Positions 15,801 to 63,622 of a stretch of DNA of 64,000 bases are shown here, piece after piece. The position numbers and the translations under genes were made by a program. Every line of letters starts with the position of its first letter. The first letter of the stretch is position 1. This DNA comes from Patescibacteria group bacterium (GTDB lineage Bacteria; Patescibacteriota; Patescibacteriia; UM-FILTER-42-10), in contig JBAYKW010000003.1 in NCBI GenBank assembly GCA_041664365.1, positions 28,696-92,695 on the forward strand. Direction: 5' to 3'. The notes under the pieces are model-generated. The model saw only the letters and a list, made by a program, of their open reading frames with translations. It was not told where the DNA came from and searched no databases.

Positions 15801-16028
15801 TCCTGGCCGAAATTTAACGCAATACTGGTTAAAGATCAGAAAATCGAATTCGTCATACAAATCAACGGCAAACTCAAGGATAAAAGTCTGATGCCGGCTG
15901 ACGCTACAGAGGAAGATGTGATACAATATGTAGAGCAAAGTAGTAAAATTCAGAAACTGATTGCAAATAAGCAAGTCATCAAAAAAATATTTGTACCGGG
16001 CAAGCTGTTAAATATTGTGGTCAAATAA
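12834..16028 (+). CDS. leuS: Leucyl-tRNA synthetase carrying an inserted YdeN/RBBP9-type serine hydrolase domain of about 200 aa
   Basis: HIGH (HVGHPRSY), editing CP1 domain (TTRPDTIFGATYLVLAPEH), KMSKS (KKMSKSLGN). The insertion lies between IHCEQC and GIVPVPEKDLPLELP (about nt 14318-14924) and carries the IIHG..GHSLGG..SDND..NHF catalytic-triad motifs. Confidence 0.9.
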   Translation: MTLMGMNNSMPEAEKYDHQSIEKKWQEKWEQEGLYETKDDTKKDKFYCLIEFPYPSAEGLHVGHPRSYTALDIVARKKRMEGNNVLFPIGFDAFGLPTENYAIKVKKNPADITDENIGRFRKQLKSLGLSFDWSREVVTTDPEYYKWTQWIFIKLFKAGLVYQAEMPINWCPSCKIGLANEEVVNGKCERCGTEVTKKNLKQWMFKITQYAQRLIDDLDTVDYLEKIKSQQINWIGRSEGARVQFKLKNSKYHVEVFTTRPDTIFGATYLVLAPEHELVEKLKPEISNVKELEKYINASQNKSDLERTDLAKDKTGVELKGIKAINPASGEEIPVWVADYVLTGYGTGAIMAVPAHDLRDFEFANRFNLDIRCVINPDKKDLNPSNIINSSFKFHESKHPEVTLTLTQWLGREWDPKTEHQELLIGNRCYVGEGKMINSGEFNGIDSQAGIKKITVWLEKLGNGKKEVNYKLRDWIFSRQHYWGEPIPLIHCEQCKKKDKKTVLIIHGTGGYGRNNWYGWLADELEKMGHEVIAPDMPEPFEPVLEKWLKVLDKYTDRLNENSVVIGHSLGGPAALHFVANLNKKIGKLILVAPTYRDMDWEDYAKKHPDDPVEYQHKFNQPEILYKSVHNNTEKIVYYYSDNDFYIPSTVPEHYKKVLKADFRMLKSRNHFSISQGGAFTFPEIFEEIMEGKKTAVGIVPVPEKDLPLELPKVKNYEPTETGESPLAGITDWVNTICPKCGGPAKRETDTMPNWAGSSWYFLRYTDPHNDKEFASQKALKYWLPVDLYNGGMEHTTLHLLYSRFWHKALYDLKLVPTPEPYQKRISHGMVLAEDGKKMSKSLGNVINPDDVVKEYGADTLRMYEMFMGPFAEAIPWDTKGIVGVRRFLDKVYLLGDRVKGLGVRGGGVDEKTKSLLHKTIKKVTEDIDEFRFNTAVSALMILVNEMQGENKVDKSTMEKLLLILSPFAPHLTEELWIKLGNNKSIHSESWPKFNAILVKDQKIEFVIQINGKLKDKSLMPADATEEDVIQYVEQSSKIQKLIANKQVIKKIFVPGKLLNIVVK

Positions 16029-43203: not shown

Positions 43204-45753
43204 ATGCGTAATGATATCAGCGCATTTAGATTAGGCAACATAATGACTAAAGTAGTTGTTATTTTTGTTTTTACTGCCGCCGTGTTGTCGGCGGTTTTTT
43301 ATTTAGGTAGGAGCGGTAATTTAATAGAAAAAACAAGAGCAACAGATTCATATGCTGAAATAGTACAGCCATATGTAGGAAGTCAGGTTATTGCACATAC
43401 TGATGCTATGGAAGGGTCTAATTATGAATGGACAATAAACGCTGAACCGGTCCAAAGCGGAACAGTCCCAACAACATTTCTTTCGCATTTTGACGGTGAT
43501 TTACGAACGATAACAGGCGAGGAGCCGATAACCAGCAGTTCTGTTACATATGAATCAGTGAAATTCGGCCAGGGTATGGTAGGAACAGCAGATTATCCGA
43601 TGACCGGCAATCTTGACGTTACAAAGGGTACACTTGATCTTTGGCTGACACTAAAAAAACCGCTGGACGATCCGGAGTTTGATAGTAGTCCGTATATTCT
43701 TTATTATCACAATTCCAGTACAGGTGATTCTTTTATAGTGAATGTGCATAATACCGATGTAATAAGTTTTACCATGTATGATTTTTCTGACGGATGGGAA
43801 TTGGCTGTTCAGGCCAGCACGAGCAACTATACAATCCCAGTAGGAGTACCTTTTCACTTTGTAGCAACATGGTCTGTCACGGATAAAGTGGCAAAAGTTT
43901 ATTTGAATGGTGAACAGGTATCACGCAGAGATTATGAAGCGGACCAGCACTTTCCGGAAATCGTTGTCGGCGCGGAAAATGTTATGATTGGAAATACAAA
44001 TGTTGTAATGGATGAGATCAGGGTTTCAAATGATGTATTATCAACAGATCAGATAAAAGATTCTTATGTCCGTGGCATGCCGTATTCAGAAAGTGATATC
44101 TATTACAACGGGATTGTTAGTGAAGGTGATACTGTAGAATTGAGCGTTACTAACGGTGGTATTCCTCAGACGGACAGTGCAACTGTCGCCGGACAAAAAA
44201 TTACTGTAACCAGCCCGGCGGGATATTTCATACTAAATACAGACACATTTACTGTCAGCTTTAATACACCTACCGTCATGACTTGTCATTATGGAGCTGT
44301 GCCGGACTCATACGCTAACCTACCGCAGGTTACAGAAGGGACGGGGACTTCACATACAATTACATATAATGTAGATACTATTGTCGAACAATTTCCGGTT
44401 GCTATCAAATGTCACGGGGTGGGCGACGAAGCTGATGATTACGCGTTCTTCCGGCGCTACCGTGTATTGCCTGAGCCGAAACTGACCTATCCTAAACTTT
44501 CAAAGATTTGGTGGGGTAATACAGTATTAGATTCAGAAGTCCCATACCTTGCTAAATTTGATTTTGTTAATACATCAAAGAGTAATATTACAAAACCCGG
44601 ACCGATTAAACAACTCAAAACATTAAATCCGAACCAAGTTGTCCTTGTTTATCAGGATATGATAGGCGTTCAGAATTATGGAGGTGTAGCATATCATTCT
44701 GAATCGGATCGCGTTTTGGAGTCTTGGCGTCTTCAAAGTTCTGAGGTTCCGGGTGATTTTTGCCGAAACCTTTATTATGCGGGTAATGATCTTTATAATC
44801 TTAATGTTAATGTTCCTTTTGGTGAGCAGAGTGCAGATCATACGGAGAAGGATTTAATTGATCGCCTTTCCTATTTTGATGGTATTTGGTGGGATGTGGT
44901 CGGACCGGATTTTTGGTTTTTGTATGATTATAACGGAAACCCGGCAAGTTATGTTGAAAATTGTGATTTTGATAACGACGGCATAGATGAAGATTTAAAC
45001 ATCACAGCAGATCGGCTGAAAGCACAGCAGATTTGGGCGAACGGTATTCATGATATAATGTTGCGTTCACGCCAGAAATTGGGACAGGAAGTATTGATGG
45101 TAGGCAACGGTAATGCATCTGTGCATTCCGACTTCAACGGAAAACATCTCGAACATTTTTTCACCCCCAGCACATTTTTACAATATTTTGATCCGAATAA
45201 CGTGCAGGGGTTTCTCTATTGGCAGAATAATTCAAAAGAGCCGAGAATGAATGATAATTTGTATAAAATTAGCGGTTCGTATGGTACTCAGTCATTCTAT
45301 AAGTCTATGCGATATGGCTTGACCGCAAGTCTCTTAGCCGGTGTTTATTTTGATCCAAACTCGGGAGCTGAAAATGTGAACAATACATGGTGGTTTGATG
45401 AATACTGGATCGATACGGAAACGGCTAGACCGACTGACATTCTTGAAACTGGTAGCGGATATCTCGGTGAACCGCAAGGGGACTATTATATGGTACAATC
45501 AAATGTGTACCGCCGTGACTTTGAAAACGGGATAGTCCTGCTTAATAATACTTCCGGATCATCTACCATTAACCTCGGCGGAACATACCGGTATCTGGAT
45601 GCGACGAACGGCGGACAAGACCCAGTCGCTAATCTGGGCGGTGAAACAGATTCAGTTACCATGAGTTGGTACGATGGGAGAATATTACTTAATCCTTTAC
45701 CGCCGCAAGACAGTACACCACCGGGGACAATTAACGATTTATATACTGAATAG
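43204..45753 (+). CDS. Tandem paralog (copy 2) of the LamG-domain protein
   Basis: Same length (849 aa), about 80% identical by eye, same leader and promoter. Confidence 0.6.
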   Translation: MRNDISAFRLGNIMTKVVVIFVFTAAVLSAVFYLGRSGNLIEKTRATDSYAEIVQPYVGSQVIAHTDAMEGSNYEWTINAEPVQSGTVPTTFLSHFDGDLRTITGEEPITSSSVTYESVKFGQGMVGTADYPMTGNLDVTKGTLDLWLTLKKPLDDPEFDSSPYILYYHNSSTGDSFIVNVHNTDVISFTMYDFSDGWELAVQASTSNYTIPVGVPFHFVATWSVTDKVAKVYLNGEQVSRRDYEADQHFPEIVVGAENVMIGNTNVVMDEIRVSNDVLSTDQIKDSYVRGMPYSESDIYYNGIVSEGDTVELSVTNGGIPQTDSATVAGQKITVTSPAGYFILNTDTFTVSFNTPTVMTCHYGAVPDSYANLPQVTEGTGTSHTITYNVDTIVEQFPVAIKCHGVGDEADDYAFFRRYRVLPEPKLTYPKLSKIWWGNTVLDSEVPYLAKFDFVNTSKSNITKPGPIKQLKTLNPNQVVLVYQDMIGVQNYGGVAYHSESDRVLESWRLQSSEVPGDFCRNLYYAGNDLYNLNVNVPFGEQSADHTEKDLIDRLSYFDGIWWDVVGPDFWFLYDYNGNPASYVENCDFDNDGIDEDLNITADRLKAQQIWANGIHDIMLRSRQKLGQEVLMVGNGNASVHSDFNGKHLEHFFTPSTFLQYFDPNNVQGFLYWQNNSKEPRMNDNLYKISGSYGTQSFYKSMRYGLTASLLAGVYFDPNSGAENVNNTWWFDEYWIDTETARPTDILETGSGYLGEPQGDYYMVQSNVYRRDFENGIVLLNNTSGSSTINLGGTYRYLDATNGGQDPVANLGGETDSVTMSWYDGRILLNPLPPQDSTPPGTINDLYTE

Positions 45754-47989: not shown

Positions 47990-49624
47990 ATGAATAGAAT
48001 GCCTGAAAAGAAAATTAAGCATATTAATAACCAAGATTCATGGATGCTGGCTGAAGACATCCCTGATATTGATTTGTTTTTTTCTCAAATTTGGTTATCC
48101 TGCCTTGCTAATGAGTTCGCCCGTCCGGGAGGATATGCCAATGAAAAAGTTATGACTATTTTCAGAGGCTACCATATGTGGTTCTATTTTGGCGAGGAAG
48201 ATTCATTCAAACAGGGTCAGCATCTAGTTGAAAGGTTTGTTAAAAACCTTCAGTTTGCAGCGGAAGCGAATGAAGAGATTGTAAAATGGTCTGACAAACT
48301 GCGCTATTTTGCGCATAATCTCCCGCAGGAGAATTTAGAAAAACTCACTAGAAAACAGTTATGGTTTTTTTATCAGAGACACGATGAAGTTCACACAAAA
48401 TATTATCAGTGGTACTGGCTTCCGGTTGCAGCCGACATGTTCCACGGAAATTTTACCGAAGAGATGAAAAAATATTTGAAGTCGATTGGGGTGGAAAAAG
48501 ATAAAATAAATGAATATCTGGTAATTTTAACTGCTCCCGAAAACAAGTCTCTAATCCAGATTGAACGTGAAGAATTTCTGACTATCGCGTCAAAAATCCA
48601 GAAAGACCCGTATCATAAAAAACTTTTCCAGAGATTATATCAGGAATTTATGGAGTACAATGGATTGCCAAATGGGATGGAGAATCATGCACCCGAATAT
48701 GAATTGGCTTTTGAAAAGAAGGTTGCAGATATAAAGGATAATATTAAGATGGAAATTCTGAAATTAATTCAGGATCACTACATTAAATACCATTATGTTA
48801 GATATATGTGGATTGGCCGTGACGATATCTATACATATGATTATTATCTCAAAGAGTTAGTGAAGCTGATTGGTGAAGACGTTAACTTCGGGGAAATATT
48901 GAAAAATGAAATCAATCAGCATAAAAATTTGATAACAAAAAAGAATGCGCTAATTAAAAAACTGAAGATTGGTAAGGATTGGAGGGTAATTTTAGCCGGT
49001 TGGTCAGAATTCATGGTAACTAAAATCCATGGCCGGTTCGCGCAAATTTACACAATCTACAACATGCAGCCGGTTTTAGGTGAAATTGCCAGAAGGCTGG
49101 ATATTTCACTCATGCAGGCAAGATTTATGATGAAATCAGAGGTCAGAGATGCGTTGATTGGGGGTAAGAAACCGGATAAGAAAACATTGCAAAAAAGGAC
49201 GAAATTCTGCGTGTATTATGTAGAAAAGGGAATTGAGAAAATATATACCGGCAATCAGGCAAAAAAAATGGCTGAAAAAACCACAATGACTGTTAATGAG
49301 GAAATCACAGAAATAAACGGACAATGCGGATGCGTGGGGAGAGGGAAAGGGAAGGTCAGATTGATAATCAGGGCTTCTGACATGGGAAAAATGAAAAACG
49401 GCGATGTTTTAGTTTCAATCGCAACTAATCCTGGCATAGTCGCGGCAATGAAAAAAGCTTCGGCAATCGTAACTGATCAGGGCGGGATTACTTCGCATGC
49501 GGCTATTATTGCCAGGGAACTGGGTATTCCATGCGTAATCGGCACAAAAATTGCGACAAAAGTATTCAAAGACGGAGATTTGGTGGAGGTGGATGCTACT
49601 AAAGGAATGGTGAGAAAATTGTGA
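47990..49624 (+). CDS. Paralog 1: unknown N-domain of about 420 aa fused to a C-terminal PEP-utilizing-enzyme mobile (phosphohistidine swivel) domain
   Basis: C-terminus [55 protein letters not shown]. Confidence 0.65.
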   Translation: MNRMPEKKIKHINNQDSWMLAEDIPDIDLFFSQIWLSCLANEFARPGGYANEKVMTIFRGYHMWFYFGEEDSFKQGQHLVERFVKNLQFAAEANEEIVKWSDKLRYFAHNLPQENLEKLTRKQLWFFYQRHDEVHTKYYQWYWLPVAADMFHGNFTEEMKKYLKSIGVEKDKINEYLVILTAPENKSLIQIEREEFLTIASKIQKDPYHKKLFQRLYQEFMEYNGLPNGMENHAPEYELAFEKKVADIKDNIKMEILKLIQDHYIKYHYVRYMWIGRDDIYTYDYYLKELVKLIGEDVNFGEILKNEINQHKNLITKKNALIKKLKIGKDWRVILAGWSEFMVTKIHGRFAQIYTIYNMQPVLGEIARRLDISLMQARFMMKSEVRDALIGGKKPDKKTLQKRTKFCVYYVEKGIEKIYTGNQAKKMAEKTTMTVNEEITEINGQCGCVGRGKGKVRLIIRASDMGKMKNGDVLVSIATNPGIVAAMKKASAIVTDQGGITSHAAIIARELGIPCVIGTKIATKVFKDGDLVEVDATKGMVRKL

Positions 49625-49767
49625 TAATATATTCATTCTATCGAGGTGTCCTGTACCACTAAATGGTACAGGACAACCCCGCACCCAAGGTGGTGCGGGG
49701 TAGACGCGACAAGGGGAGTTGTTAAAAAGATTTAAGGTTAATACATTTAATATAATTTATTTAAAAT

Positions 49768-50676
49768 ATGCCAGATCATTTTAAACCAGAACAACAATTA
49801 GCAAATCCAGAAAGAGAAAGGGAATATACTTCTAGAGTTTTACTTCATTTTTTTCGCCATGGAGAAAAGGAGTCTATCCCAGGTAGAACAAACGAAGAAC
49901 AGATGTTGACAGCCGCTGGCCGCCGTCAAGGTTTGGAAACTGGACTAATGAGACCGGAAGCTAAGCCATCAGCTATGGCCTTTGGTAGTGATATACCTAG
50001 ATCTCAAGAAATGGCCGGTTTTGACCTAGCCGGAGCTCAAAGACGAGAAGATATTAGTGGAGATGAATCATTGGATGAATTAAGGGATATATTAGACCAA
50101 GATATTAAAATAGGTACCAAATTAGCAGTAGATCCGCGACTGGGTTTTCATTATGACGATCCGGGATTATTAGCTGAGGCTACTAAAGCTTATAAAAATG
50201 GACAGGCATTAAAATTTGTTGTTGAGAATAGTGATGAAATAGCCAAAAATGCGGGTGATAACGATAGTACAACATATGCTAAATCAGCAGCTAATGTTTC
50301 AGAGATACTTAATAAGTATATGACAATTGCGTCCCGTTTTGATCAGATTGTCAGCGATGAGGATAAAAAAGAAAAATATAGTGATACGCTGGAGAGATTC
50401 ATGGGTTCGCATGCCGGTGTGATAGATGTTTTTTTATGTAAGGTAGTGGAAAAATTAAAAGGCGTGGAAGTGCGAAATAAATTAGTGCAAGCATTGAATA
50501 ATAACGGTTTTAATTTTGCTGAGGGTTTTGATATAGAAATTGATGTGATAAATGGTGAAACGCAAATGCGTATCAAGTATTCAAAACCAGAAGATGAACG
50601 CGGTGAAGCTTTTGAAATTGATGAGATGATTCCCAGGGAGATGCTAGAAGAAATGATGGAAGCGGGAGGAAAATAG
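49768..50676 (+). CDS. Histidine-phosphatase-superfamily (PGAM-like) protein, paralog 1
   Basis: RHG motif LLHFFRHGEKE with LTAAGRRQGLETG, and the distal motif GSHAGVI. Confidence 0.5.
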   Translation: MPDHFKPEQQLANPEREREYTSRVLLHFFRHGEKESIPGRTNEEQMLTAAGRRQGLETGLMRPEAKPSAMAFGSDIPRSQEMAGFDLAGAQRREDISGDESLDELRDILDQDIKIGTKLAVDPRLGFHYDDPGLLAEATKAYKNGQALKFVVENSDEIAKNAGDNDSTTYAKSAANVSEILNKYMTIASRFDQIVSDEDKKEKYSDTLERFMGSHAGVIDVFLCKVVEKLKGVEVRNKLVQALNNNGFNFAEGFDIEIDVINGETQMRIKYSKPEDERGEAFEIDEMIPREMLEEMMEAGGK

Positions 50677-50706
50677 TAATTTTATCAATCATTAAATAAA
50701 AATTTT

Positions 50707-52197
50707 ATGGCGGGAGCAGTAATAAGATCAGGAGAGTGGAGGATTAAGCCGTCCGGTAAATTACCAATTTTTTTGCGTTTTATGATTAACTCTAGCTTTA
50801 GCCATGAAATTGCCAATCAAGTTGGCTTTAAGAATCATATAGTAAATCGAGTTTATTTGAATCATATGATGTACTGGCCGGCAAAAGAATATGATGCTTT
50901 TGAAACAGAAATAATTAATAACTTAAAGCAGGATAATTATTGGCTTGATAACTATTGCAACAGAGAACTTAAAAATTCAGAAGAACTTTATAATTTAGGT
51001 TTAAAATTACAAAAAACTGATTGGTCAAAAAAAAGTAATTTAGAGATGAAAAAAACTTTAGATAGTCTGTTAAATAAATATAAATTGTTATCATGCTCAT
51101 GGTATGCACAGTACCCGATTGATATTTATTATGAAGATAGAATAGAGGAATTTTTGCTAAAATATATAAAAATATCCAACTCTGATTTTAGAAAATTAGT
51201 TTTGATTTTTACTGACCCTAAGGAAATGACTGAAGTAGCTGAAGAAAGGTGGAAATTAATAACAATCGCAAATAAATTTAAAAAGAATAAAGAAGATTTA
51301 AATAACTTATCAAAATCAGCAGACAATGATTTAAATAATCATTTAGATAGATTCGCTTATATCAATCGCGGTTTAGCTACCAGTAAGCCTTATACTAGAC
51401 AAGATATAATTGATAGGATAAAAGAGTCTTTGCATAGCAAAGAAGGTCTTAATAAATTGATCAATAATAGTTCGCCTGAAAAAGTAAAAGAGGATTATAA
51501 CTGGGCATTAAGTCAAATTAAACCAGAAGCTGATTTTAAACGTACAATTGAACAAGCTCGTTTACATTCCTATACTAGAAACAGAAGGGTAGAGGCTTTT
51601 TTTAGAGCCGACTTTGGAGCTAGTTTTATGTATCATGAAATTGCCAGAAGAAACAAATTCAACGAGGATTGGGTAATGGAATTATCTGTAGAGGAAATGT
51701 ATGGTGCTTTAGATGGTAAAATATTACCAGACAAGACCGAAATGCAACGTCGTTTTACCAACTATGCCATGGTTGTTGAAGATGCCAAAACAAAATTAGT
51801 TGTTGATCCTAAGGAAATAAAAAAGTTAGAAGAAAAATATAGTGTTGAGATTGTGGATTCTAATGAATTGCAAGGTAAAATGGCTAGTTTGGGCGGGATA
51901 ATCAGGGGGAGGGCCAAAATATGCTTAGACAAGAAAGATATTGGTAAAATAGAAAGAGGGGACATCTTGGTAGCTCAGTTTACTACGCCTGACTTTGTCC
52001 CAGCGATGGAAAAAGCTGCTGCGATTGTTGCTGATCAAGGCGGGCTATCTTCCCACGCCGCTATTGTTTCAAGAGAGCTGGGAGTGCCGTGCGTCATAGA
52101 TACTAAAAATGGTACTCGAATTATTAAGGACAATGATTTACTGGAGATCAATGCTCAAACAGGCTTAGTTAAAATATTAGAAAGAGCAAAAGAATAA
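50707..52197 (+). CDS. Paralog 2: unknown N-domain plus PEP-utilizing mobile domain
   Basis: C-terminus [49 protein letters not shown]. The N-domain shares the LTAP/TDP...E..L..IA motif with paralogs 1 and 4. Confidence 0.65.
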   Translation: MAGAVIRSGEWRIKPSGKLPIFLRFMINSSFSHEIANQVGFKNHIVNRVYLNHMMYWPAKEYDAFETEIINNLKQDNYWLDNYCNRELKNSEELYNLGLKLQKTDWSKKSNLEMKKTLDSLLNKYKLLSCSWYAQYPIDIYYEDRIEEFLLKYIKISNSDFRKLVLIFTDPKEMTEVAEERWKLITIANKFKKNKEDLNNLSKSADNDLNNHLDRFAYINRGLATSKPYTRQDIIDRIKESLHSKEGLNKLINNSSPEKVKEDYNWALSQIKPEADFKRTIEQARLHSYTRNRRVEAFFRADFGASFMYHEIARRNKFNEDWVMELSVEEMYGALDGKILPDKTEMQRRFTNYAMVVEDAKTKLVVDPKEIKKLEEKYSVEIVDSNELQGKMASLGGIIRGRAKICLDKKDIGKIERGDILVAQFTTPDFVPAMEKAAAIVADQGGLSSHAAIVSRELGVPCVIDTKNGTRIIKDNDLLEINAQTGLVKILERAKE

Positions 52198-52201
52198 GAC
52201 A

Positions 52202-53593
52202 ATGCTAAAAGATAAAGCTAGAATTAATTTGGATATCAAATTCATTGCCGACAAAACGTCGGGGATCTCCTGTGAACCATTTTTGGCTTCTATACCACTC
52301 AAAGTAGTTGAAGCTAACAATTATCGGCATTTAATTAAATTCCCTTTTTATGGTTTAAGTATCAATTGTCGTCAGAAGTATGCCGACGAATATATAGATG
52401 AAGCTAAATATGAAGGAGAGACTAATAAGCTATTAGTTTATGTAAGAAAAAATGGTCCTAAATATATACAAGATATTGCTACTTTAATTACTCAAGAAGC
52501 CAAGGATTTTAAGAAATATTCAGATAAGCTCATAGCCAAAATACCTAAACTTAGTAATCGCCAATTAGTTGACCAGATGACGTCTTATGTTAATCACTAT
52601 GCTTATCATTTTGGCTTAGGGGGGCCAACTTTTGTTTATGAAGCTATTTTATCGGCTCGGATCACTGAATCACTGTTTTTCCGGTACCAAGAGGCGCCGC
52701 AAATTATTAACCAGCTTTTGGCTGGTAAACACCAAAGTTTCATGGTGGATAGTGAAAAACTACTTTTAAAAATCAAGCAAGAAAAAAGTAAAAGACAAAA
52801 AGATGCTTTAATAAAAAAGTATATTAAAGAATTTTACTATATGGGCCCGGCTTATATCTACACAAAACCTTTGAATGCAAGTAGAGTCCTTAAGTTGGCA
52901 GCTACTGCTATGGCATCCAAACATCAATCATTTGAAAAAATAAAAGGTTTTAAACTTTTACCTGAGGAAAAATTAATTATCGATATTTTAAAACCGACGG
53001 AAATAATTCGTGATAAAAGAAAGTATATCAATCATATTGGTTCTTACACTTTATCTAGATTCTTAGATGAAGCAGTCAAAAGGTCTGGTGTGCCAATGAG
53101 TTTAGCTGTTAAGTCTTTCTGGTTTGAATACAGTGATTTAGTTTTTTCACCACAGATAATTAGGAGGAAACTGCAAAAAAGGAGTAAGGTCTCACTTGTG
53201 GCAGTTGATAATAATTTAATGTATCTAGAGGGAGATAGGATAAAAAACAGATTGCCGGTAAATAAAGGACAGCGATCTTTCATTGGTATTTCAGCATGCC
53301 AAGGAAAAACTACTGGTAAGGTACGCGTAATTCTGGGACCGTCAGATTTTAGAAAATTTAAGATAGGAGAGATACTGGTAACTGATATGACCAGGCCGGA
53401 TTTCATGCCAATTATCCGTCATGCTAGAGCCATTATTACAAATGAGGGAGGGCTTACTTCTCACGCGGCTGTTATTTCCAGGGAGCTTAATATTCCCTGC
53501 GTACTGGGCACTAAAGTTGCGACCAGAATATTAAAGGACGGAGATTTCGTGGAAGTAGACGCAAATCGCGGTATAATAAAAAAATTAAAATAG
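52202..53593 (+). CDS. Paralog 3: unknown N-domain plus PEP-utilizing mobile domain
   Basis: C-terminus GEILVTDMTRPDFMPIIRHARAIITNEGGLTSHAAVISRELNIPCVLGT. Confidence 0.65.
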   Translation: MLKDKARINLDIKFIADKTSGISCEPFLASIPLKVVEANNYRHLIKFPFYGLSINCRQKYADEYIDEAKYEGETNKLLVYVRKNGPKYIQDIATLITQEAKDFKKYSDKLIAKIPKLSNRQLVDQMTSYVNHYAYHFGLGGPTFVYEAILSARITESLFFRYQEAPQIINQLLAGKHQSFMVDSEKLLLKIKQEKSKRQKDALIKKYIKEFYYMGPAYIYTKPLNASRVLKLAATAMASKHQSFEKIKGFKLLPEEKLIIDILKPTEIIRDKRKYINHIGSYTLSRFLDEAVKRSGVPMSLAVKSFWFEYSDLVFSPQIIRRKLQKRSKVSLVAVDNNLMYLEGDRIKNRLPVNKGQRSFIGISACQGKTTGKVRVILGPSDFRKFKIGEILVTDMTRPDFMPIIRHARAIITNEGGLTSHAAVISRELNIPCVLGTKVATRILKDGDFVEVDANRGIIKKLK

Positions 53594-53597
53594 TTTT

Positions 53598-55103
53598 ATG
53601 AAATATGTAGAAGGTCTGCTGAAAAAAAATCTTAAAAAATGGAGTGGTAAAAAATGGTACCATCAGCGGTTTGATGGAGCGCCATATTTAATCCATACAA
53701 TAGCAGAAGCGGAAATAACTGTAGATATCAAAAAGAAAAAGGGAACGCATAATGCTGTCCATTATTGCTTTTTTAATGATGGCAAAGCTGACTGGTATAT
53801 TGAAATAGAAGATATGAAGAGGGTCTACTCGGCTGTATTGAAGGCCGGTAAAAAAAATTATCAACTGGGTCGTACTATGATTTCTGCTTGGCAGCCACAG
53901 CAAGATAGTTTTTACAAAAAGTGTTTGGAAATTGATAAAGTCAACTTAAAAATTCTAAAAAATCAAGAGTTAATAAAGTTACATGATGAGTTTCTGGAAA
54001 TAATCTTACATAAAAACAGTTGTAGTTCTATTATCGATGGATTCGCTTTAGGAACGGATGAAATTGTAGCCGAAATGATACAAAAAATATACGATGTCAA
54101 TCCAATAAATAAAAAATTAAGATTTGCGGAAGTATTTTCTATTCTGACTGCTCCAGTTCATTTGTCTTTTATTAATGAAGCGGAAATAGAGCTCTTGCAA
54201 ATTGCAAAGGCTGTTAAGAGGGGAGAAAATAAAAACAAATTATTGAAGGAGTATCAGAAAAAATATTTCTGGATTAGAAACAATTATATTGATGCCAACA
54301 TACTGACATTCAATCATTTCGCGAATGAATTGAAAAAGATTCTTTCACAAAAGACCAATATTGATAAAAAGATAAATAATATTAAAAATACACCGACCAG
54401 AAGTAGGCTGTTAAAAGATAAATTAATTGTAGAATTGAAAATAAGCAAGGAATTAAAATTTTTATTAAAAACATCAGAGGATTTTACATATTGGCAAGAC
54501 GAAAGAAAGCGGGGAACATTCTGGATTGCGCATTATACCTATTTGATATTAAAAGAGATTTGTCGTCGTACGGGTATTACTCCGGAAGAAATAAAATATT
54601 TATCACCACGCGAAGTAAGTGAAATATTTAAAAATAAGGTAAATAGAAAATTATTACAACAAAGAATCAAAGCTTGTGTTTTTTATTGGGATTTAAATGG
54701 ACACGAAGCAGTGGTCGGTAAGGATTATAAAAATGTGATGCATGAAATATTAGGAAATAAAAAGTTATCAGATGTTGATGATTTTCGAGGGCTGACTGCC
54801 TGCATGGGAAAGGCACGCGGTCAGGTTAGAATAGTCCATAGTGCTAGGGAAGTTAATAAAGTTGAGCAAGGTGATATATTAGTTGCTGTTATGACTAGGC
54901 CGGATTATGTACCGGCAATGAAGAAAGCGGCGGCTATTATAACTGATGAGGGAGGCTTAACTTGCCACGCAGCTATAATATCGCGGGAGTTAAATATCCC
55001 TTGTATTATCGGGACTAAGATTGCCACCAAAGTTCTCAAAGATGGTATGGAAGTAGAGGTCAATGCAAATCATAGTTGGGTAAAAATTATCAAAAAAATA
55101 TGA
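53598..55103 (+). CDS. Paralog 4: unknown N-domain plus PEP-utilizing mobile domain
   Basis: C-terminus GDILVAVMTRPDYVPAMKKAAAIITDEGGLTCHAAIISRELNIPCIIGT. Confidence 0.65.
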   Translation: MKYVEGLLKKNLKKWSGKKWYHQRFDGAPYLIHTIAEAEITVDIKKKKGTHNAVHYCFFNDGKADWYIEIEDMKRVYSAVLKAGKKNYQLGRTMISAWQPQQDSFYKKCLEIDKVNLKILKNQELIKLHDEFLEIILHKNSCSSIIDGFALGTDEIVAEMIQKIYDVNPINKKLRFAEVFSILTAPVHLSFINEAEIELLQIAKAVKRGENKNKLLKEYQKKYFWIRNNYIDANILTFNHFANELKKILSQKTNIDKKINNIKNTPTRSRLLKDKLIVELKISKELKFLLKTSEDFTYWQDERKRGTFWIAHYTYLILKEICRRTGITPEEIKYLSPREVSEIFKNKVNRKLLQQRIKACVFYWDLNGHEAVVGKDYKNVMHEILGNKKLSDVDDFRGLTACMGKARGQVRIVHSAREVNKVEQGDILVAVMTRPDYVPAMKKAAAIITDEGGLTCHAAIISRELNIPCIIGTKIATKVLKDGMEVEVNANHSWVKIIKKI

Positions 55104-55117
55104 TTTAGGAAATTGAA

Positions 55118-56509
55118 ATGAATAGTAAAGCAAACAAATATAATTGGAAAAAATTGTGGGCAAGAAATTATACCCCATTTATGATGGAGTCATTTATTCA
55201 TGTTTTTCAAAAAACAGCCAATTTAAATATGTCTAATAATAAACTAGTTGTCCCGGATGGTAAGCTCTATGCGATTTATTTTGAAGAAAAGGAATTTGGA
55301 CAACTGACTGAAAATTATAAACGTTTGCTTCTGAAGAAAGACATAAAAGACTTTGCAGTTGCTTATGAACAGTCGTTTAAAAATTTTAATAATTGGTCTA
55401 AGAAAATTACTGATAGAGATTTTAGCAAACTTACTAATCAGCAGTTAGCTCGTTTTATCAAAGTCCTTCATAAAAAACTCATCATATTTTCCGAGCAGCA
55501 ATTTTGCGCTTTTCTGGTTTTAGAAGGTATGGGTCGAGAAATTGAGCGTATTTTTGCTGAGCAGCCTGAAATTTTGCATGCCATAGGTACTCCCTACCGC
55601 TTTACCAAAATAGTAAAAGCAAGGGTTGAATTACTGAAATTAAAAACGAGAGGAAAAGTAACAAACAAAGATTTACAAAATTATATTCGTCGAAATTCCT
55701 GGCTTTCAGTTTACCAATTTACTGACAATTTACTGACAGTCGATAATGTTAAAGAAGAATTATCTGGGATAAAACATTCTCAGACCGAATTAAAACGTCT
55801 AATCACTAACCAAAAAAAAGATTTAAAGCAATACAAAGTATTTGTAAAAAATCTTAAGGACAAAAAACTAAAAAAGATGGTGGCGATAGTTCATGCTTTT
55901 GCCTATCTAAAAGAAATGCGTGACGATTATAGACGTCATGCTTATTACTATTATGCTGGATTTTGGCAAGAAATTAGCAAGAGGTTGAGTATTTTGTTCA
56001 CAGAAACAAATTATTTGGTATCTGAAGAGCTACAAGAAGTATTAATGGGATCAAAAAAAATAAACTATAAGAAATTGGTAAAAGAAAGAAAAAATAGTTA
56101 CGCACTCGTTCTTAAAGAAGGCAAGCTAAGTATTTATAGTGGTAAAAAAGCAAATACAATAACTGCGTTGATTAAACCAATAGCACACAGTAAGGAATTA
56201 TCGGGTTATACTGCCTGCCAAGGGAAAGCTAAGGGCAGGGTAAATATAATTTCACATCATGGTGAACTGAAAAAATTTAAAAAAGGAGATATTTTAGTAA
56301 CTAGCATGACTCATCCTGAGTTTATAAGTATAATGAAAAAAGCATCGGCAATTGTTACTGATGAAGGGGGAATTACTTGCCATGCTGCTATTGTGTCTAG
56401 AGAATTAGGGATTCCTTGTATAATTGGCACGAAAATTGCCACCAAAGTATTTAAAGACGGGGATATGGTGGAAGTGGATGCAACGAAAGGAATAGTAAAA
56501 AAGCTGTAA
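55118..56509 (+). CDS. Paralog 5: unknown N-domain plus PEP-utilizing mobile domain
   Basis: C-terminus [49 protein letters not shown]. Confidence 0.65.
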
Positions 56510-56545
56510 TAATAGAAAATATAATTAATTAATTTAAGAATTATT

Positions 56546-57481
56546 ATGCCAGAACCCGGATTTAAACCAAAACAGCCCGGTCTTCAACCAGAACAACAAG
56601 AGCGAAAAGAGTGGGGTCGCAACGTAGCGCTTACATTAAAAATAATGCGTCATGGGGATCGTGACAAACAAAAAAACTTAAGTGAATATGGCCGAAAGGA
56701 AACCCGTCAGCGTGCAAAGGATTTAGGCATTAAACCGGATGATTTTGATGCAATCAAAGCAATCGGTTCAAGTGCCGGTCCGGAAAGAGAAATAGAAGTA
56801 AATGGCAAAAAAGTTTCTATGGGCAGGGCTTTAGAAACTGCCCATATCTATGCGGACGAGCTGGATAGTGAAAATGAATTTGTGACTCGTGTAAATGATT
56901 TGTTGAATTTTGAAACGATCAAAACGCCGGCTCCTCATGACCATACTGCGGTTTATAATTCTAATCTGCCGGAAAATTATGATGATTTAGATGAAGTAGC
57001 GAAGGCGAAGGCGGCGGAAGATGCGCAGATCGCTACAGTTAATTACGTATTCAGCTTGCATAATCCGGAAGCGGAAGCATGGAAAAGGGAACAGGCAGGT
57101 GCTTTTGCTTATTTGGTGGAGCATTATCAAAAACTAGTAAAAAAATTAAAAAATAATTCAAGAGTATTAATACCCGCCGGCAGTCATGGCCCAACTATTG
57201 AAATTTTACTTCAACAGGCTTTAGTCATTAAGAAAGAAGACGGCACAGAACAGGTTGGCTTTGACAATATTGATGATATTGGCGGGCCTTCGCAGCCTTC
57301 TGATTCTTATAATATTGAAATTGTTACTGATGAAAATGGTGAATTCCAGGATTTAGTGGTGACCTTTGATGATCCAGACAGACCGCAATTTGAAATGCGG
57401 TTGGACGGGGATAGAATAAGAGAGCTTGCCGAATTTTATGAAGAACTTCATCCTGTGGAAAGATATAACCCAGGGGGATAA
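56546..57481 (+). CDS. Histidine-phosphatase-superfamily (PGAM-like) protein, paralog 2
   Basis: LKIMRHGDRD with LSEYGRKETRQRAKDLG, and the distal motif GSHGPTIE. The N-terminus is paralogous with 49768-50676 (MP..FKP.QQ). Confidence 0.5.
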   Translation: MPEPGFKPKQPGLQPEQQERKEWGRNVALTLKIMRHGDRDKQKNLSEYGRKETRQRAKDLGIKPDDFDAIKAIGSSAGPEREIEVNGKKVSMGRALETAHIYADELDSENEFVTRVNDLLNFETIKTPAPHDHTAVYNSNLPENYDDLDEVAKAKAAEDAQIATVNYVFSLHNPEAEAWKREQAGAFAYLVEHYQKLVKKLKNNSRVLIPAGSHGPTIEILLQQALVIKKEDGTEQVGFDNIDDIGGPSQPSDSYNIEIVTDENGEFQDLVVTFDDPDRPQFEMRLDGDRIRELAEFYEELHPVERYNPGG

Positions 57482-57516
57482 ATTCAGAATGACAGAGAGT
57501 ATTTAAAAACAAAAAA

Positions 57517-57542
57517 CTCGGCCAGATCAGCCGGGTTTTTTT
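57517..57542. terminator. Weak bidirectional terminator between convergent genes
   Basis: Short GC hairpin cggc-cagatca-gccg, flanked by an A-run and a T-run. Confidence 0.35.
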
Positions 57543-57555
57543 AATTTGGTTTATT

Positions 57556-57927
57556 CTATTGCTTTGGTGCAGAGTTAAGAATATTGGAAATCAACTTTTT
57601 AATATCATCTATATGGATATTGTCCTTTTGCAGGAAATATTTGACACCTAAAGCTTTAACTTTTTCTTCGTTACCGTCTTGGCCTAGAGATGAAAGGACA
57701 ATAACAGGTATCGTTGATTCTTTATTTTGTTTTAAGAAATCAAAACCCCCCATCACTGGCATCATAATATCCAGCATAATTACGTCCGGCTGGAATTCTT
57801 TTACCAGATCCAAACCTGCTTGCCCATTATCCGCTGTCCTGACATCGTACCCTTCAGGAACAAGGGATGATTTAATAACTTGTTGAATAGCGCTATCATC
57901 ATCAATTACTAAGATTTTTTTTGTCAT
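57556..57927 (-). CDS. Standalone CheY-like response-regulator receiver domain
   Basis: KILVIDDDSAIQQVI...DVIMLDIMMPVMGGFDFLK...PVIVLSS. Confidence 0.85.
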   Translation of the reverse strand: MTKKILVIDDDSAIQQVIKSSLVPEGYDVRTADNGQAGLDLVKEFQPDVIMLDIMMPVMGGFDFLKQNKESTIPVIVLSSLGQDGNEEKVKALGVKYFLQKDNIHIDDIKKLISNILNSAPKQ

Positions 57928-60891: not shown

Positions 60892-61839
60892 ATGGCAAAA
60901 TTTACCAAAACTTTTTCACAATTAAATAGAAAAAGTGTAGCAGAAGCGGGAGGAAAGGGCGCACAACTGGGTGAGATGACAAAGGCAAAATTGCCAGTTC
61001 CACCAGGGTTTGTGGTACTTTCCGGCACATTTGAGCGTTTTTTGGAAGAAACGGACCTGGATGTAGAGATAGACGCATTGTTAAAAAAGGTAAATTTGAG
61101 TGATATTAACAGTGTGGACCGGGTTTCCAATGCAATCCGGGAATTAATCCACGAATTAGTTGTCCCGGATGATATCGCAAAAGAGATCCAGACCGCTTTT
61201 AATAAATTGAAAACCAAATATGTTGCTGTCCGTTCTTCCGCGACAGCCGAGGATTCATCCGTTGCATCCTGGGCGGGCGAACTGGAAACATATTTGTTTA
61301 TTACTAAAGCAAATTTGGTTGAAACAGTGCGTAAATGTTGGTCATCGCTGTTTACCCCCCGCGCGATTTTTTACCGCTTTGAGAAAAAACTGCACAAGAC
61401 CAAAGTAAGTGTCGGCGTCGTAGTCCAAAAGATGATTAATTCGGAAATATCCGGCGTGACATTTACAGCCCACCCGGTTACCAACGATCTGGATCAGATG
61501 GTGATTGAGGCGGGGTTCGGCCAGGGTGAATCAATCGTCTCAGGACAGATTACGCCGGATACCTATGTGGTAGATAAGAAAAATAAAATCATTTTAGATA
61601 TTAATATCTCTGAGCAAAAGAAAATGATTGTTCAGAATGGTAGTAAGGGAACAAAAACAGTCACTGTTGTAAAATCAATGCAGGAAAAGCAGAAACTCAC
61701 AGGCAAACAAATCATTCAACTTGCCGAAGTCTGCAAAAGAATAGAAAAACATTATAACCATCCCCAAGACATAGAATGGGCGATGGAAAAAAATAAAATT
61801 TATATTACGCAATCAAGACCAATAACAACACTGAAATAA
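60892..61839 (+). CDS. Standalone PEP-synthase/PPDK N-terminal ATP-grasp (PPDK_N, PEP/pyruvate-binding) domain protein with no His or TIM domains
   Basis: AGGKGAQLGEM..PVPPGFVV, VAVRSSATAEDSSVASWAGELETYL, DIEWAMEKNKIYITQSRPIT. The ORF stops where the swivel domain begins in PpsA and in rifampin phosphotransferase. Confidence 0.7.
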   Translation: MAKFTKTFSQLNRKSVAEAGGKGAQLGEMTKAKLPVPPGFVVLSGTFERFLEETDLDVEIDALLKKVNLSDINSVDRVSNAIRELIHELVVPDDIAKEIQTAFNKLKTKYVAVRSSATAEDSSVASWAGELETYLFITKANLVETVRKCWSSLFTPRAIFYRFEKKLHKTKVSVGVVVQKMINSEISGVTFTAHPVTNDLDQMVIEAGFGQGESIVSGQITPDTYVVDKKNKIILDINISEQKKMIVQNGSKGTKTVTVVKSMQEKQKLTGKQIIQLAEVCKRIEKHYNHPQDIEWAMEKNKIYITQSRPITTLK

Positions 61840-61840
61840 A

Positions 61841-63181
61841 ATGGAGGATCAAAAAAACAAAATCAACACAGCAAAATCGGTGAAAGTAAATGTTGCTTCC
61901 GGAAAGAAAGACGATGAAGAAAAGCAGATTTTAAAAGGTGCCAGAATTCTAATTAAAGACCAAAAAGGGCAGTACAGCTATGTAAAAGGAGCCAAATTAA
62001 TGGGTGAGGACGAGGTTGTTGTTGCTTCTGCGCCGGTGGTTTCCGCGCCAACAAAGAGTAAAATAGATCCATCCATTATCAAAAAAGCGGTTGCGCAGTT
62101 GGCTAATCAAAAGATGATAACGCCATCCGTTAAACCGGCCCCCCTACCAAGAAAACAGGACGAAGTAAGTACGGTAACAGCTTCTCAGCTAAAACCGGTT
62201 TTTCAAGATCGGATGGTTCCGAATAAAGGAGTTAACGCAAGTTTTTATTTTGATGTAGAGGATGAGGAGGAAGTGAAAAAAATGCATAATGAGGAAATTT
62301 CCTCATCGGCCAGAACTATTGATTACGGCACAGTTGTTAAAGAGATTGCAAATCAGGTCGGATTAAATTTTACTGATGAATCTTTGCAAAAAAGATTTGA
62401 AAGCCTAATAACATCCCGTCTGAGAGATATTCGAACTTCCGTCCAATTAAGAGAGCTTTTGGTCCGTTCAAAAAAAGTCGGCGGTTTAGAACTTGAACCT
62501 GAGATTGCGGAATCGATCGTGAAAATAACCGCAGAGAAGGCGCTGAGTTTTCATAATGAAACCGAGATCAAAAAAATTGAATACCGGCAGATGATGAAGT
62601 TGCAGGAAGCGGAAAAAGAGAGAGAGCAGCAGGAAAGGATGAGAAAAGCAGTAGCAAATGAACAGATTAAGAAAGCGGTTCTCAATCTGCATTTGCAGAA
62701 GAAAAATGAATTAGAAAATGCGGTCAAACCGGAACCACAGCCGGTCATTAACAAGCCGATTATTGATAGACGGATTCCAATTATCCCAAAGATGCAAAGA
62801 CCGATGCCGGTTTTTGACAGCAGGCCAAAAATTGTGGATATCAAGACGCCGCCAAGATTAATGGGTCCGATAGAGGAAATAAGAAGCTTGAATTTGGTGG
62901 ATTTTAGAAGGCTCGGCGGGAACCCCCAGCAGTCAATTGAAAAAATAAAAGAGAAAGTTGATCTGTTGGAAGAGGAATCATATACCAAGAAAGCGGAAGC
63001 GATCCAAGCCTGGAAGAAATCGGAGATTTATCAGATATATCTAGACATCGGTAATGAAGGTATGAATAAAGGAAAATCCGTCCAGGATGTGATAACAAGC
63101 AGGAAAATGGACGGCCGTTCCTATCTGACCGATGAAGAGTTTGAAGCGGTAGGGGATCTAAATAGACAGTTAAGATTTTAA
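61841..63181 (+). CDS. Hypothetical K/E-rich protein
   Basis: ORF directly abutting upstream and downstream genes. Confidence 0.4.
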   Translation: MEDQKNKINTAKSVKVNVASGKKDDEEKQILKGARILIKDQKGQYSYVKGAKLMGEDEVVVASAPVVSAPTKSKIDPSIIKKAVAQLANQKMITPSVKPAPLPRKQDEVSTVTASQLKPVFQDRMVPNKGVNASFYFDVEDEEEVKKMHNEEISSSARTIDYGTVVKEIANQVGLNFTDESLQKRFESLITSRLRDIRTSVQLRELLVRSKKVGGLELEPEIAESIVKITAEKALSFHNETEIKKIEYRQMMKLQEAEKEREQQERMRKAVANEQIKKAVLNLHLQKKNELENAVKPEPQPVINKPIIDRRIPIIPKMQRPMPVFDSRPKIVDIKTPPRLMGPIEEIRSLNLVDFRRLGGNPQQSIEKIKEKVDLLEEESYTKKAEAIQAWKKSEIYQIYLDIGNEGMNKGKSVQDVITSRKMDGRSYLTDEEFEAVGDLNRQLRF

Positions 63182-63184
63182 AAT

Positions 63185-63622
63185 ATGCGGTTTGTAGTTC
63201 CCCAATTTATTGAAGTAGAAGATAAAATTATCGGACCGATTTCCGTCCGGCAATTTATAATTTTTCTAGTGGCATTCGGAATCATTTTCATTGAATACCA
63301 AGTATTAGGATTTATAACATTTATTTTTGCTGCCCTGTTTATGTTCGGGTTGGCCGGCATTGTTGCATTCGCTAAAATTAACGGTCAGCCTTTCCATTAT
63401 TTTTTTCTTAATATCCTGTATACAATCAGGAAGCCGAAAATTAAGATTTGGAGCAAAGAAGTGGTCAGCGGAGCAAGTAAAATAAGCCATAAAAATTCCA
63501 TTAAAACTGCCGTGGTTGTAGCTCCAAAAATGGCTGTTACAAATTCAAAACTGACTCGTTTGTCACTGGTAGTCGACACGGGAGGGGCGTTTAAAGAGGA
63601 CGAAGATGATGTCAATTTTTAA
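63185..63622 (+). CDS. PrgI/VirB3-like small membrane protein of Gram-positive-type T4SS
   Basis: N-terminus FVVPQFIEVEDKIIGPISVRQFIIFLVAFG followed by two TM helices. Confidence 0.5.
   Translation: MRFVVPQFIEVEDKIIGPISVRQFIIFLVAFGIIFIEYQVLGFITFIFAALFMFGLAGIVAFAKINGQPFHYFFLNILYTIRKPKIKIWSKEVVSGASKISHKNSIKTAVVVAPKMAVTNSKLTRLSLVVDTGGAFKEDEDDVNF

Follow-up and report, generated by a model that had tools for sequence, protein, structure and literature searches.

What do two genes for histidine-phosphatase-like proteins do amid a run of phosphotransferase swivel genes in a Patescibacteria genome? In the 64,000-nucleotide stretch of contig JBAYKW010000003.1 that we analyzed (the window), a sequence-only reading had pointed to two such open reading frames, and both are present on the plus strand: gene A (49768-50676), encoding a long-form histidine-phosphatase-superfamily protein of 302 amino acids, separates swivel gene 1 from swivel gene 2, and gene B (56546-57481), encoding another of 311 amino acids, follows swivel gene 5, as that reading had placed them. 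The RHG tripeptide and distal SH(A/G)G motif ascribed to both proteins map to R30-H31-G32 (nucleotides 49855-49863) and G213-S-H215-A-G (50404-50418) in A, and to R35-H36-G37 (56648-56656) and G212-S-H214-G-P (57179-57193) in B. Each protein also carries a second arginine invariant in its own family, R78 in A (RSQEMA) and R94 in B (RALETA), and the L(T/S)..G..Q segment noted earlier proves to be the canonical helix-1 motif, with G51 of A and G49 of B invariant within their families. The arginine/histidine/arginine/histidine quartet does not vary in any of the 28 sequences of family A or the 34 of family B, and the catalytic residues of A and B are therefore not chance tripeptides. B carries RHGxR with an invariant R39 and A carries RHGEKE; a further motif, G98-x-E100-x3-E104, is invariant in family A.

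AF2 models of both proteins are confident (pLDDT 92.0 for A and 90.5 for B) and reveal an alpha/beta/alpha sandwich with a central mixed sheet, the arrangement that defines the superfamily. In these models RHG directly follows strand 1 (22-30 in A, 28-35 in B), the second arginine opens helix 2 (77-90 in A, 94-106 in B), and the distal histidine stands after strand 4 (H215 after strand 207-214 in A, H214 after strand 206-213 in B). HMMER alignment of the family A profile with solved family members matches its RHG and RxxETA segments to those of 3eoz, 3f2i, 1h2e and 3dcy, with the second arginine paired to RAKETA of 3eoz and RALETA of PhoE, and a weak alignment at the distal histidine sets sHagvidsFL of A against cHGNVIRYFL of 3eoz. 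The canonical RHG position and the distal catalytic histidine, the two features on which the proposed PGAM-like fold had been staked, are present in both proteins, and models, catalytic-residue positions and family-profile alignments all support that fold. A and B are thus long-form members of the histidine phosphatase (PGAM-like) superfamily, composed of the core, a helical cap (residues 132-204 in A and 133-198 in B) and a C-terminal beta/alpha extension. Both N-termini are hydrophilic and carry no signal peptide, which places the proteins in the cytoplasm, where they are probably active enzymes.

Comparison with the two branches of the superfamily shows where A and B fit and where they depart. 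With branch 1 (PhoE, PGAM5-like 3eoz, SixA-like 3f2i; PF00300) they share the RHG after strand 1, the LT..G..Q helix, the RxxETA second arginine and the distal SH(A/G)G histidine, and the family A profile matches this branch by sequence. Unlike branch 1 proteins, however, they are about 100 amino acids longer, have the large cap and C-terminal extension, belong to Patescibacteria-restricted families and lack an evident canonical L-x-E general acid. The superfamily uses as general acid either a glutamate after strand 3 (branch 1) or the HD-motif aspartate (branch 2). When the register is set by secondary structure and by a MAFFT alignment with a GpmA-like protein, the L-x-E position appears to be aromatic in both proteins (F127 in A; F122 in B, with E123 adjacent); HMMER instead pairs the invariant E104 of A with the donor glutamate of PhoE. 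The distal histidine is followed by alanine in A or glycine in B and never by aspartate, so neither protein has an HD motif. Likeness to branch 2 (prostatic acid phosphatase 1nd5, AppA 7z1j, MINPP and the PPIP5K phosphatase domain 9grn) is structural only, with no sequence similarity detected between A or B and this branch, and we rejected assignment as branch-2 histidine acid phosphatases, as A and B lack the HD motif, the proline of RHGxRxP and a signal peptide. Against PF00300 (His_Phos_1), A scores 13.6 bits (E 0.052), under the gathering threshold of 21.7, and B gives no match; some family A homologues have a precomputed PF00300 assignment, but the families as such escape capture by Pfam and NCBIfam.

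The two genes had been called paralogs, and this relationship is real but ancient. BLASTP aligns A and B only at E=0.018 over 54 residues, and the two proteins are about 17% identical, whereas hhalign of the two family profiles returns a probability of 98.2% and an E value of 5.8e-14 over 238 columns and pairs the proteins at the second-arginine position. A and B represent two anciently diverged small families restricted to Patescibacteria; identity within family A is 38-79%, and the B profile recovers 316 cluster representatives among 1.84 billion. The N-terminal string MP..FKP.Q that had been taken as a shared region is present in both proteins but conserved in neither family, and it falls within disordered tails (residues 1-17, pLDDT <50 in both models), so it is no family signature.

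The genes around A and B have the layout of a two-component RPH-like dikinase, with a separate ATP-grasp subunit and five plus-strand swivel genes whose products all end in a PF00391 domain with a histidine motif. Swivel paralog 1 (47990-49624, 544 amino acids, PF00391 E 2.3e-25) joins a variable N-terminal domain to a PEP-utilizers mobile domain at the C-terminus, where phospho-acceptor His503 lies in GGITSHAA. Paralog 2 (50707-52197, 496 amino acids, E 7.5e-24) carries His450 in GGLSSHAA, and its NCBIfam alignment to RPH-type models reaches upstream of the swivel domain (residues 321-491). Paralog 3 (52202-53593, 463 amino acids, E 3.8e-25) carries His421 in GGLTSHAA. Paralog 4 (53598-55103, 501 amino acids, E 1.6e-25; His457 in GGLTCHAA) aligns to positions 698-863 of the RIF_Ptrans_rph model, and its N-terminal domain clusters in the largest recurrent subfamily, c0. 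In paralog 5 (55118-56509, 463 amino acids, E 6.6e-27; His422 in GGITCHAA), residues 227-461 align to positions 634-880 of the PigC model. Alignments of the swivel proteins to the NCBIfam RPH, PigC and RedH models do not stop at the swivel domain but take in a further 70-130 residues upstream of it; a profile of 36 swivel N-domains found no match in the PDB by sequence. The stand-alone ATP-grasp nucleotide-binding subunit (PPDK_N; 60892-61839, plus strand, 315 amino acids, PF01326 E 5.7e-99) matches the first ~314 positions of RPH-type and PEP-synthase models end to end, and a stand-alone PPDK_N gene is also found near arrays at L005, L006, L011, L013, L016, L019, L034 and L038 among the loci of other genomes; relatives also contain fused genes in the order PPDK_N-X-swivel. 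These alignments suggest that the products of the five swivel genes serve as acceptor subunits in split dikinases of RPH/PigC-like type, and that the stand-alone PPDK_N probably charges them.

Adjacency in other genomes links the phosphatase-like genes to these arrays. A same-strand swivel gene lies within 300 bp of a phosphatase-like homologue at 22 of 26 informative loci, mostly at less than 40 bp; divergent genomes share this closeness, and the genes often overlap or stand 2-40 bp apart. At one further locus the homologue abuts a stand-alone PPDK_N gene, and at L027 and L029 family A genes overlap or directly adjoin fused PPDK_N-X-swivel genes. When loci were picked by PPDK_N alone, a phosphatase-like gene (~250-300 amino acids) stood beside the swivel genes in four of six. 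The proposed functional link between the two kinds of gene is therefore well supported. At least three divergent phosphatase-like families accompany such arrays, with two or more possible per locus. The array here combines one ATP-grasp gene with five hypervariable swivel paralogs, which elsewhere number up to ~10. HAD_2 phosphatase genes are likewise interleaved with swivel genes (L005, L041, L045), and in a single case an HAD phosphatase is fused to a swivel protein (L043:5266-7383). No other pathway enzymes were found in the arrays at the loci examined. Two points depart from the earlier reading: the bracketing of the swivel genes by A and B is not a conserved layout but belongs to a variable block of this genome, running from A to B, that is absent from the syntenic relative L040, where an ortholog of swivel paralog 1 is kept, and the phylogenetic profile of the phosphatase-like genes is not a simple match to the swivel-gene profile, since the arrays at L040 and L042 lack them. 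The phosphatase-like genes are accessory to the arrays.

As to function, we tentatively favor a role for A and B in dephosphorylating small-molecule products or downstream intermediates of the split dikinases, a reading we hold at slightly under an even chance and above resetting of the phospho-histidine carriers. One stand-alone ATP-grasp subunit would charge the conserved histidine of many swivel proteins, whose hypervariable RPH/PigC-related N-terminal domains would present differing small-molecule acceptors. By the mechanism of the superfamily, the RHG histidine (H31 in A, H36 in B) would then attack a phosphomonoester held by the two arginines and the distal histidine, forming a phospho-histidine enzyme intermediate that is subsequently hydrolyzed. 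The best structural alignments of A and B, covering 200-232 residues, are to branch-2 acid phosphatases and phytases with helical caps, whereas only ~135 residues align to the minimal protein phosphatase SixA (1ujc). SixA is a minimal core of ~160 amino acids without a cap, and insertions on such a core are considered to determine substrate specificity (PMC12051542). Cap architecture and the parallels with HAD phosphatases favor small molecules as the targets, and so does the diversity of phosphatase-like families at the arrays.

Two kinds of known system offer precedents for such an activity. HpeHI, like CreHI and PpsAB, pairs a separate ATP-grasp protein with a substrate-binding subunit bearing a C-terminal swivel histidine, as here (PMC12167813), and HpeD, the operon-encoded HAD-type phosphatase of the HpeHI pathway, dephosphorylates a downstream small molecule (PMC9618137, PMC12167813). 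A and B may be pathway phosphatases of this kind, and HAD_2 genes within the Patescibacteria arrays extend the likeness; HpeD, however, is a NagD-like HAD enzyme and not a PGAM-fold protein, and Hpe clusters contain one dikinase with carboxylase and CoA enzymes, in contrast to the five swivel paralogs here, which, unlike both Cre and Hpe clusters, come without additional pathway enzymes. Alternatively, A and B could supply the erasing activity of a set-point pair. In PFK-2/FBPase-2 and PPIP5K/Vip1, which are such pairs, genetic coupling joins a kinase to an eraser with the histidine-phosphatase fold that acts on the same small molecule (PMC11836120); the phosphatase domains of both are among the structural matches of A and B (1bif, 5hr5, 9grn). 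Each of those enzymes is one fused polypeptide whose kinase domain works directly, not as a dikinase, and it controls one signaling metabolite, unlike the separate genes, split dikinase and many paralogs here. Since the arrays lack additional pathway enzymes, opposing kinase and phosphatase action on one molecule would amount to a futile cycle unless regulated. Further points against small-molecule products are the absence of phosphatase-like genes from the two arrays noted above, the apparent lack of the canonical general acid, and the contrast between conserved A and B families and hypervariable swivel N-domains, which fits a partner that recognizes the constant swivel domain. In many relatives, phosphatase-like genes directly beside dikinase arrays point to an undescribed kinase-phosphatase partnership.

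The contrast between conserved phosphatase-like families and hypervariable swivel N-domains would also suit protein-directed phosphatases acting at GG-x-(T/S)-(S/C)-H-AA, the conserved loop of the swivel domain, a reading of A and B that we consider unlikely but the nearest competitor. They would dephosphorylate the phospho- or pyrophospho-histidine of the carrier or, next to it, a phosphorylated regulatory threonine or serine. In this way every paralog that depends on the common ATP-grasp subunit for charging would be reset or throttled, a role resembling that of SixA toward NPr and Ndk. Swivel N-domains adjoining families A and B form 68 clusters and show no constant pairing with a phosphatase-like gene, while swivel C-domains are 46-64% identical; the lack of other pathway enzymes and the apparently unoccupied general-acid position fit as well, and the superfamily includes proven phosphohistidine phosphatases of phosphocarrier proteins, namely SixA (PMC7948535, PMC6282199, PMC12934123). 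We nonetheless rejected a SixA-type assignment for A and B, given their length, cap and C-terminal extension, and none of the SixA targets (NPr, the ArcB HPt domain and Ndk) is a swivel domain. Protein-directed members known so far have either a minimal core or an open active site, whereas A and B have a large cap like that of small-molecule acid phosphatases; with a single conserved target, there would be redundancy among the several divergent phosphatase-like families; constitutive reset would waste ATP; and HAD phosphatases are also recruited, even in cis, where a domain acting on the carrier would short-circuit it. A broader and somewhat less probable form of this idea makes the long-form RHG proteins dedicated partners of the conserved swivel domain that gate the shared ATP-grasp module feeding the hypervariable carriers, whether as phospho-histidine (or pyrophospho-histidine) phosphatases or as His-to-His phosphoryl acceptors; if true, Patescibacteria would possess a phosphohistidine control circuit of their own, for which no counterpart has been described.

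Less probable again is that A and B are phosphotransferases or mutases and not net hydrolases, with the RHG histidine taking phosphate from the swivel phospho-histidine or a metabolite and passing it to another position or acceptor, as in dPGM. The superfamily includes mutases that use the same phospho-histidine intermediate, PGAM and BPGM are among the structural matches of A and B, the canonical hydrolysis-promoting acid is not evident, and the histidine-phosphatase and HAD superfamilies, both recruited to the arrays, each contain mutases; but no swivel domain is known to pass phosphate from its histidine to that of a PGAM-fold enzyme, and a related locus has a separate bona fide GpmA-like gene (L007:14238-14978). 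That A and B are housekeeping phosphatases or inactive pseudoenzymes placed beside swivel genes incidentally is very improbable, given close adjacency in 22 of 26 loci across divergent genomes, which is already largely the co-occurrence named as its refutation, the invariance of all four catalytic residues and a family so small that it fits a housekeeping role poorly.

Two nucleic-acid elements accompany the block on the plus strand. Within the 143 bp that separate swivel gene 1 from gene A, two back-to-back perfect hairpins (49645-49700) fold with a z-score of -5.2, matched by none of 200 shuffles; the element occurs once in the window, gave no Rfam match and lies at the left edge of the block missing in L040. 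After gene B, a consensus scan identified a terminator-like hairpin (57511-57541) with a 12-bp stem followed by a T-run, which is common to gene B and a convergent response-regulator gene and likely marks the end of the transcription unit.

Seven co-directional ORFs separated by short gaps form the array, all on the plus strand: swivel gene 1 (sw1, 47990-49624), gene A (49768-50676, 302 aa), swivel genes 2 to 5 (sw2, 50707-52197; sw3, 52202-53593; sw4, 53598-55103; sw5, 55118-56509) and gene B (56546-57481, 311 aa). All five swivel proteins carry a PEP-utilizers mobile domain, in every case at the C-terminus only (Pfam, E about 1e-24 to 1e-27), and each mobile domain contains a GGx(T/S)(S/C)HAA motif. 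A terminator-like hairpin lies 3′ of B (57511-57541), and beyond it a response-regulator and GAF-PAS histidine-kinase pair is convergent to the array. An Rfam scan of the window returned one tRNA and nothing else.

A stand-alone ATP-grasp nucleotide-binding domain gene (PPDK_N, 60892-61839, E 5.7e-99) matches rifamycin-phosphotransferase-type (RPH) and PEP-synthase models end to end, from model position 1 to ~314. For several swivel paralogs the match to RPH, PigC and RedH-type models reaches 70-130 residues further N-terminal than the swivel domain, and relatives include fused proteins ordered PPDK_N, variable domain, swivel, which follow the RPH domain order and differ from that of PEP synthase. 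RPH is the fused prototype of such dikinases (PMC4844700), and the split small-molecule dikinases of RPH type HpeHI, CreHI and PpsAB have been characterized (PMC12167813). Based on these model matches, the RPH-like order and the known split dikinases, we infer that sw1-sw5 are acceptor subunits with one common charging subunit. The variable N-terminal parts of the five proteins (N-domains) share only 19-27% pairwise identity, against 46-64% for the swivel domains, and a profile of 36 N-domains found no match among PDB sequences. Surplus length in fused relatives consists of additional swivel units only. Giant fusions at three of the compared loci from other genomes and metagenomes (numbered with the prefix L) join PPDK_N to two or three variable-domain-plus-swivel units (L026:4008-9304, L017:44-3313, L010:1074-3587), and the L026 ORF, at least 1765 aa, continues past the contig end. 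Over 60892-63622, PPDK_N is followed immediately by a T4SS-like cluster, in which an unannotated ~450-aa protein precedes PrgI/VirB3, a TraC-like protein and then a VirB4-like ATPase. Three relatives share this order (L040, L041 and L045, 10001-15400), which may be functional or just inherited synteny; a published study of the Patescibacteria T4SS says nothing of the PPDK_N gene beside it.

Gene A scores 13.6 bits against Pfam His_Phos_1, below the 21.7-bit threshold, gene B has no Pfam match, and NCBIfam and PADLOC searches gave nothing usable for either. A protein identical to the product of A, labelled "hypothetical protein", occurs in a Patescibacteria MAG, which places the window in an uncultured CPR bacterium. 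Homologs (n=28 for A, n=61 for B) are all unnamed, Patescibacteria-labelled or titled "histidine phosphatase family protein". The sequence-only reading had placed both genes among the histidine phosphatases by their RHG tripeptides, L(T/S)..G..Q segment and distal SH(A/G)G, all of which we located where it had put them; alignments show R30/H31/R78/H215 to be invariant in family A and R35/H36/G37/R39/R94/H214 in family B. The same reading took a shared 'MP..FKP.Q' start as a further link, and this start is common to A and B but falls in disordered tails that are unconserved in either family, and is not a family feature. Compared directly, A and B resemble each other only marginally (about 17% identity; BLASTP E 0.018 over 54 residues), so that profiles are required to demonstrate the proposed paralogy. 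Profile-profile comparison bore it out (98.2% probability, E 5.8e-14) with an alignment spanning nearly the full length (238 columns), which indicates that A and B are true but ancient paralogs and not products of a recent duplication. Both families are small and specialized; the family B profile recovers just 316 cluster representatives among 1.84 billion proteins. Inspection of ten family B relatives of greater length (378-480 aa) for informative fusions revealed no Pfam domains, and the family B profile found no match among PDB sequences.

AlphaFold models built from the family alignments are of high confidence, with pLDDT 92.0 and pTM 0.89 for A and pLDDT 90.5 and pTM 0.87 for B. In both models the RHG follows strand 1, helix 2 begins with the second Arg and the distal His follows strand 4; an RHG out of canonical position or a missing distal His is seen in neither protein. 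The RHG and RxxETA of the family A profile align in HMMER with those of 3eoz, 3f2i, PhoE (1h2e) and the TIGAR-like 3dcy, and E104, invariant in A, pairs with the PhoE donor Glu as a candidate general acid. A and B have the fold and catalytic quartet of the histidine phosphatase superfamily, fall below the Pfam threshold and lack the branch 2 defining motifs and the SixA architecture. As judged from alignments and models, the "hypothetical" genes interleaved in the array turn out to be predicted intact histidine-phosphatase-fold enzymes. We rejected three known identities: branch-2 acid phosphatase, as A and B are without an HD motif or signal peptide; SixA, by their size and cap; and housekeeping dPGM, as the families are tiny and a separate GpmA-like gene is present (L007).

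Loci around A and B homologs in genomes and metagenomes were scanned with HMMs made from the window, yielding 30 distinct A/B-family genes, of which the 26 with at least 1.5 kb of flank were counted as informative. For 22 of these 26, a same-strand swivel gene lies no more than 300 bp away, usually no more than 40 bp, and one further gene abuts a stand-alone PPDK_N. In L027 and L029 the family A gene is overlapped or immediately adjoined by a fused dikinase gene, and no swivel gene occurs within 10 kb of the A/B-family gene in L003, L012 and L014. Patescibacteria very commonly encode a stand-alone PPDK_N (5350 or more matches at E <=1e-60). In the reverse test, six loci anchored on such genes, a phosphatase-like gene of ~250-300 aa stands beside swivel genes in four, and L040 and L042 have none. 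Conserved adjacency, small specialized families and the existence of arrays without a phosphatase together show that phosphatase-swivel coupling is strong and that the phosphatase-like genes are accessory. Among the phosphatase-like genes of those four loci is a third RHG...SH family, encoded on the opposite strand (L041:5883-6794(-), L043:7403-8311(-), L045:7925-8827(-)). Other divergent RHG...SH proteins of ~250-300 aa adjoin arrays at L016:7037-7885, L006:19656-20543 and L044:9128-9883(-); the array-adjoining divergent proteins comprise at least one third family, are often on the opposite strand, and for the most part sit at the edge of Pfam detection or beyond it. On a contig labelled 'archaeon GW2011_AR5' (L011, JWKQ01000003.1), a family B gene accompanies a stand-alone PPDK_N and four swivel genes, reflecting either mis-binning or transfer beyond Patescibacteria.

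To either side of the A-to-B block, L040 retains synteny with the window at 70-77% DNA identity, through a pilin gene, the sw1 ortholog, the response regulator, the histidine kinase, PPDK_N and T4SS-like genes. The block itself (49625-57590; A, sw2-5 and B) is wholly absent, and the sw1 ortholog leads directly to the response regulator (L040 6693-6855), identifying A, sw2-5 and B as a presence/absence cassette. The arrangement in L045 differs, the inserts there being a HAD gene, a swivel gene and a third-family gene at another position. The bracket first proposed, two phosphatases around four paralogs, therefore describes the block of this genome and is not a conserved architecture. GC content is ambiguous as a sign of block acquisition, being low in sw2-sw5 (0.33-0.35) and like the flanks in A (0.38) and B (0.415). 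In the spacer between sw1 and A, where the block has its left edge, stand two perfect back-to-back hairpins (49645-49700; 12-bp and 10-bp stems; fold z-score -5.2) with no second copy within the window, no Rfam match and no T-run.

We tentatively favor a reading in which A and B may act on small-molecule products or intermediates of the dikinases. The cap architecture of both proteins points to such substrates, since specificity is thought to depend on what is inserted into the SixA-like core (PMC12051542). Arrays are accompanied by no fewer than three divergent families of phosphatase-like genes, sometimes two per locus, and a second phosphatase superfamily has been recruited, as HAD_2 genes interleaved with swivel genes (L005:16637-17248, L041:3698-4303, L045:5738-6349) and as a HAD domain fused to the N-terminus of a 705-aa swivel protein (L043:5266-7383). 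Precedent comes from the HpeHI pathway, where a HAD-type phosphatase of the operon, HpeD, removes phosphate from a small molecule further down the pathway (PMC9618137), and from PFK-2/FBPase-2 and PPIP5K, which pair a kinase with a histidine-phosphatase-fold eraser on one metabolite (PMC11836120) and are both among the structural matches of A/B. Action on the carriers, removing phosphate from the phospho-His or an adjacent regulatory Thr/Ser of swivel proteins, is less probable; it has a precedent in SixA (PMC7948535, PMC6282199, PMC12934123) and is consistent with clusters that hold no other pathway enzymes. It also agrees with phosphatase-like families that are conserved while the neighboring N-domains vary, since the 122 N-domains sort into 68 clusters and phosphatase families are not consistently paired with N-domain subfamilies (cluster c0 recurs near family A in five loci, not universally), and with a canonical L-x-E general-acid position that appears aromatic (A F127, B F122) in proteins lacking an HD motif. 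Transferase or mutase activity is quite unlikely, and incidental adjacency or a pseudoenzyme is very improbable; some of the probability is assigned to none of these readings.

Searches of the literature on Patescibacteria/CPR dikinases and histidine phosphatases found no account of these arrays and no description of the long-form families A/B or their linkage to Patescibacteria dikinase arrays. The fold, the chemistry and an operon phosphatase beside a two-component dikinase are already familiar; new are distinct Patescibacteria-restricted phosphatase families placed in a multi-paralog array system. Patescibacteria have tiny genomes, and despite this they retain dedicated phosphatases and a stand-alone ATP-grasp subunit alongside arrays that can hold about ten swivel-His proteins. 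With adjacency of phosphatase-like genes to dikinase subunits kept across many lineages and the enzymes predicted to be intact, what emerges is a module of three parts, charger, carriers and eraser, that lends itself to testing. If dikinase products are the targets, this would be a system that phosphorylates and dephosphorylates multiple substrates, with scavenging, detoxification or signaling as possible roles in epibiotic bacteria; if the carriers are, regulation by phosphohistidine phosphatases would reach beyond SixA. Under either reading, two new family profiles can annotate proteins that Pfam and NCBIfam now miss.

Elsewhere in the window, the editing region of a 1064-aa leucyl-tRNA synthetase (12834-16028) is separated from the remaining catalytic domain by an alpha/beta-hydrolase insertion (aa 503-677, Pfam Ser_hydrolase), and a 450-aa ORF (1372-2724) combines a guanylate kinase domain (aa 5-186) with ~260 residues without a Pfam match. 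Two very large ORFs lie side by side at 19645-29031 (3128 aa) and 29044-32976 (1310 aa), where GC content is higher (0.44-0.46). A tandem pair of 849-aa paralogs, each with a membrane anchor at its N-terminus, occupies 40548-43097 and 43204-45753, and the single copy in L040, annotated GHL15, indicates a recent tandem duplication in the window genome.
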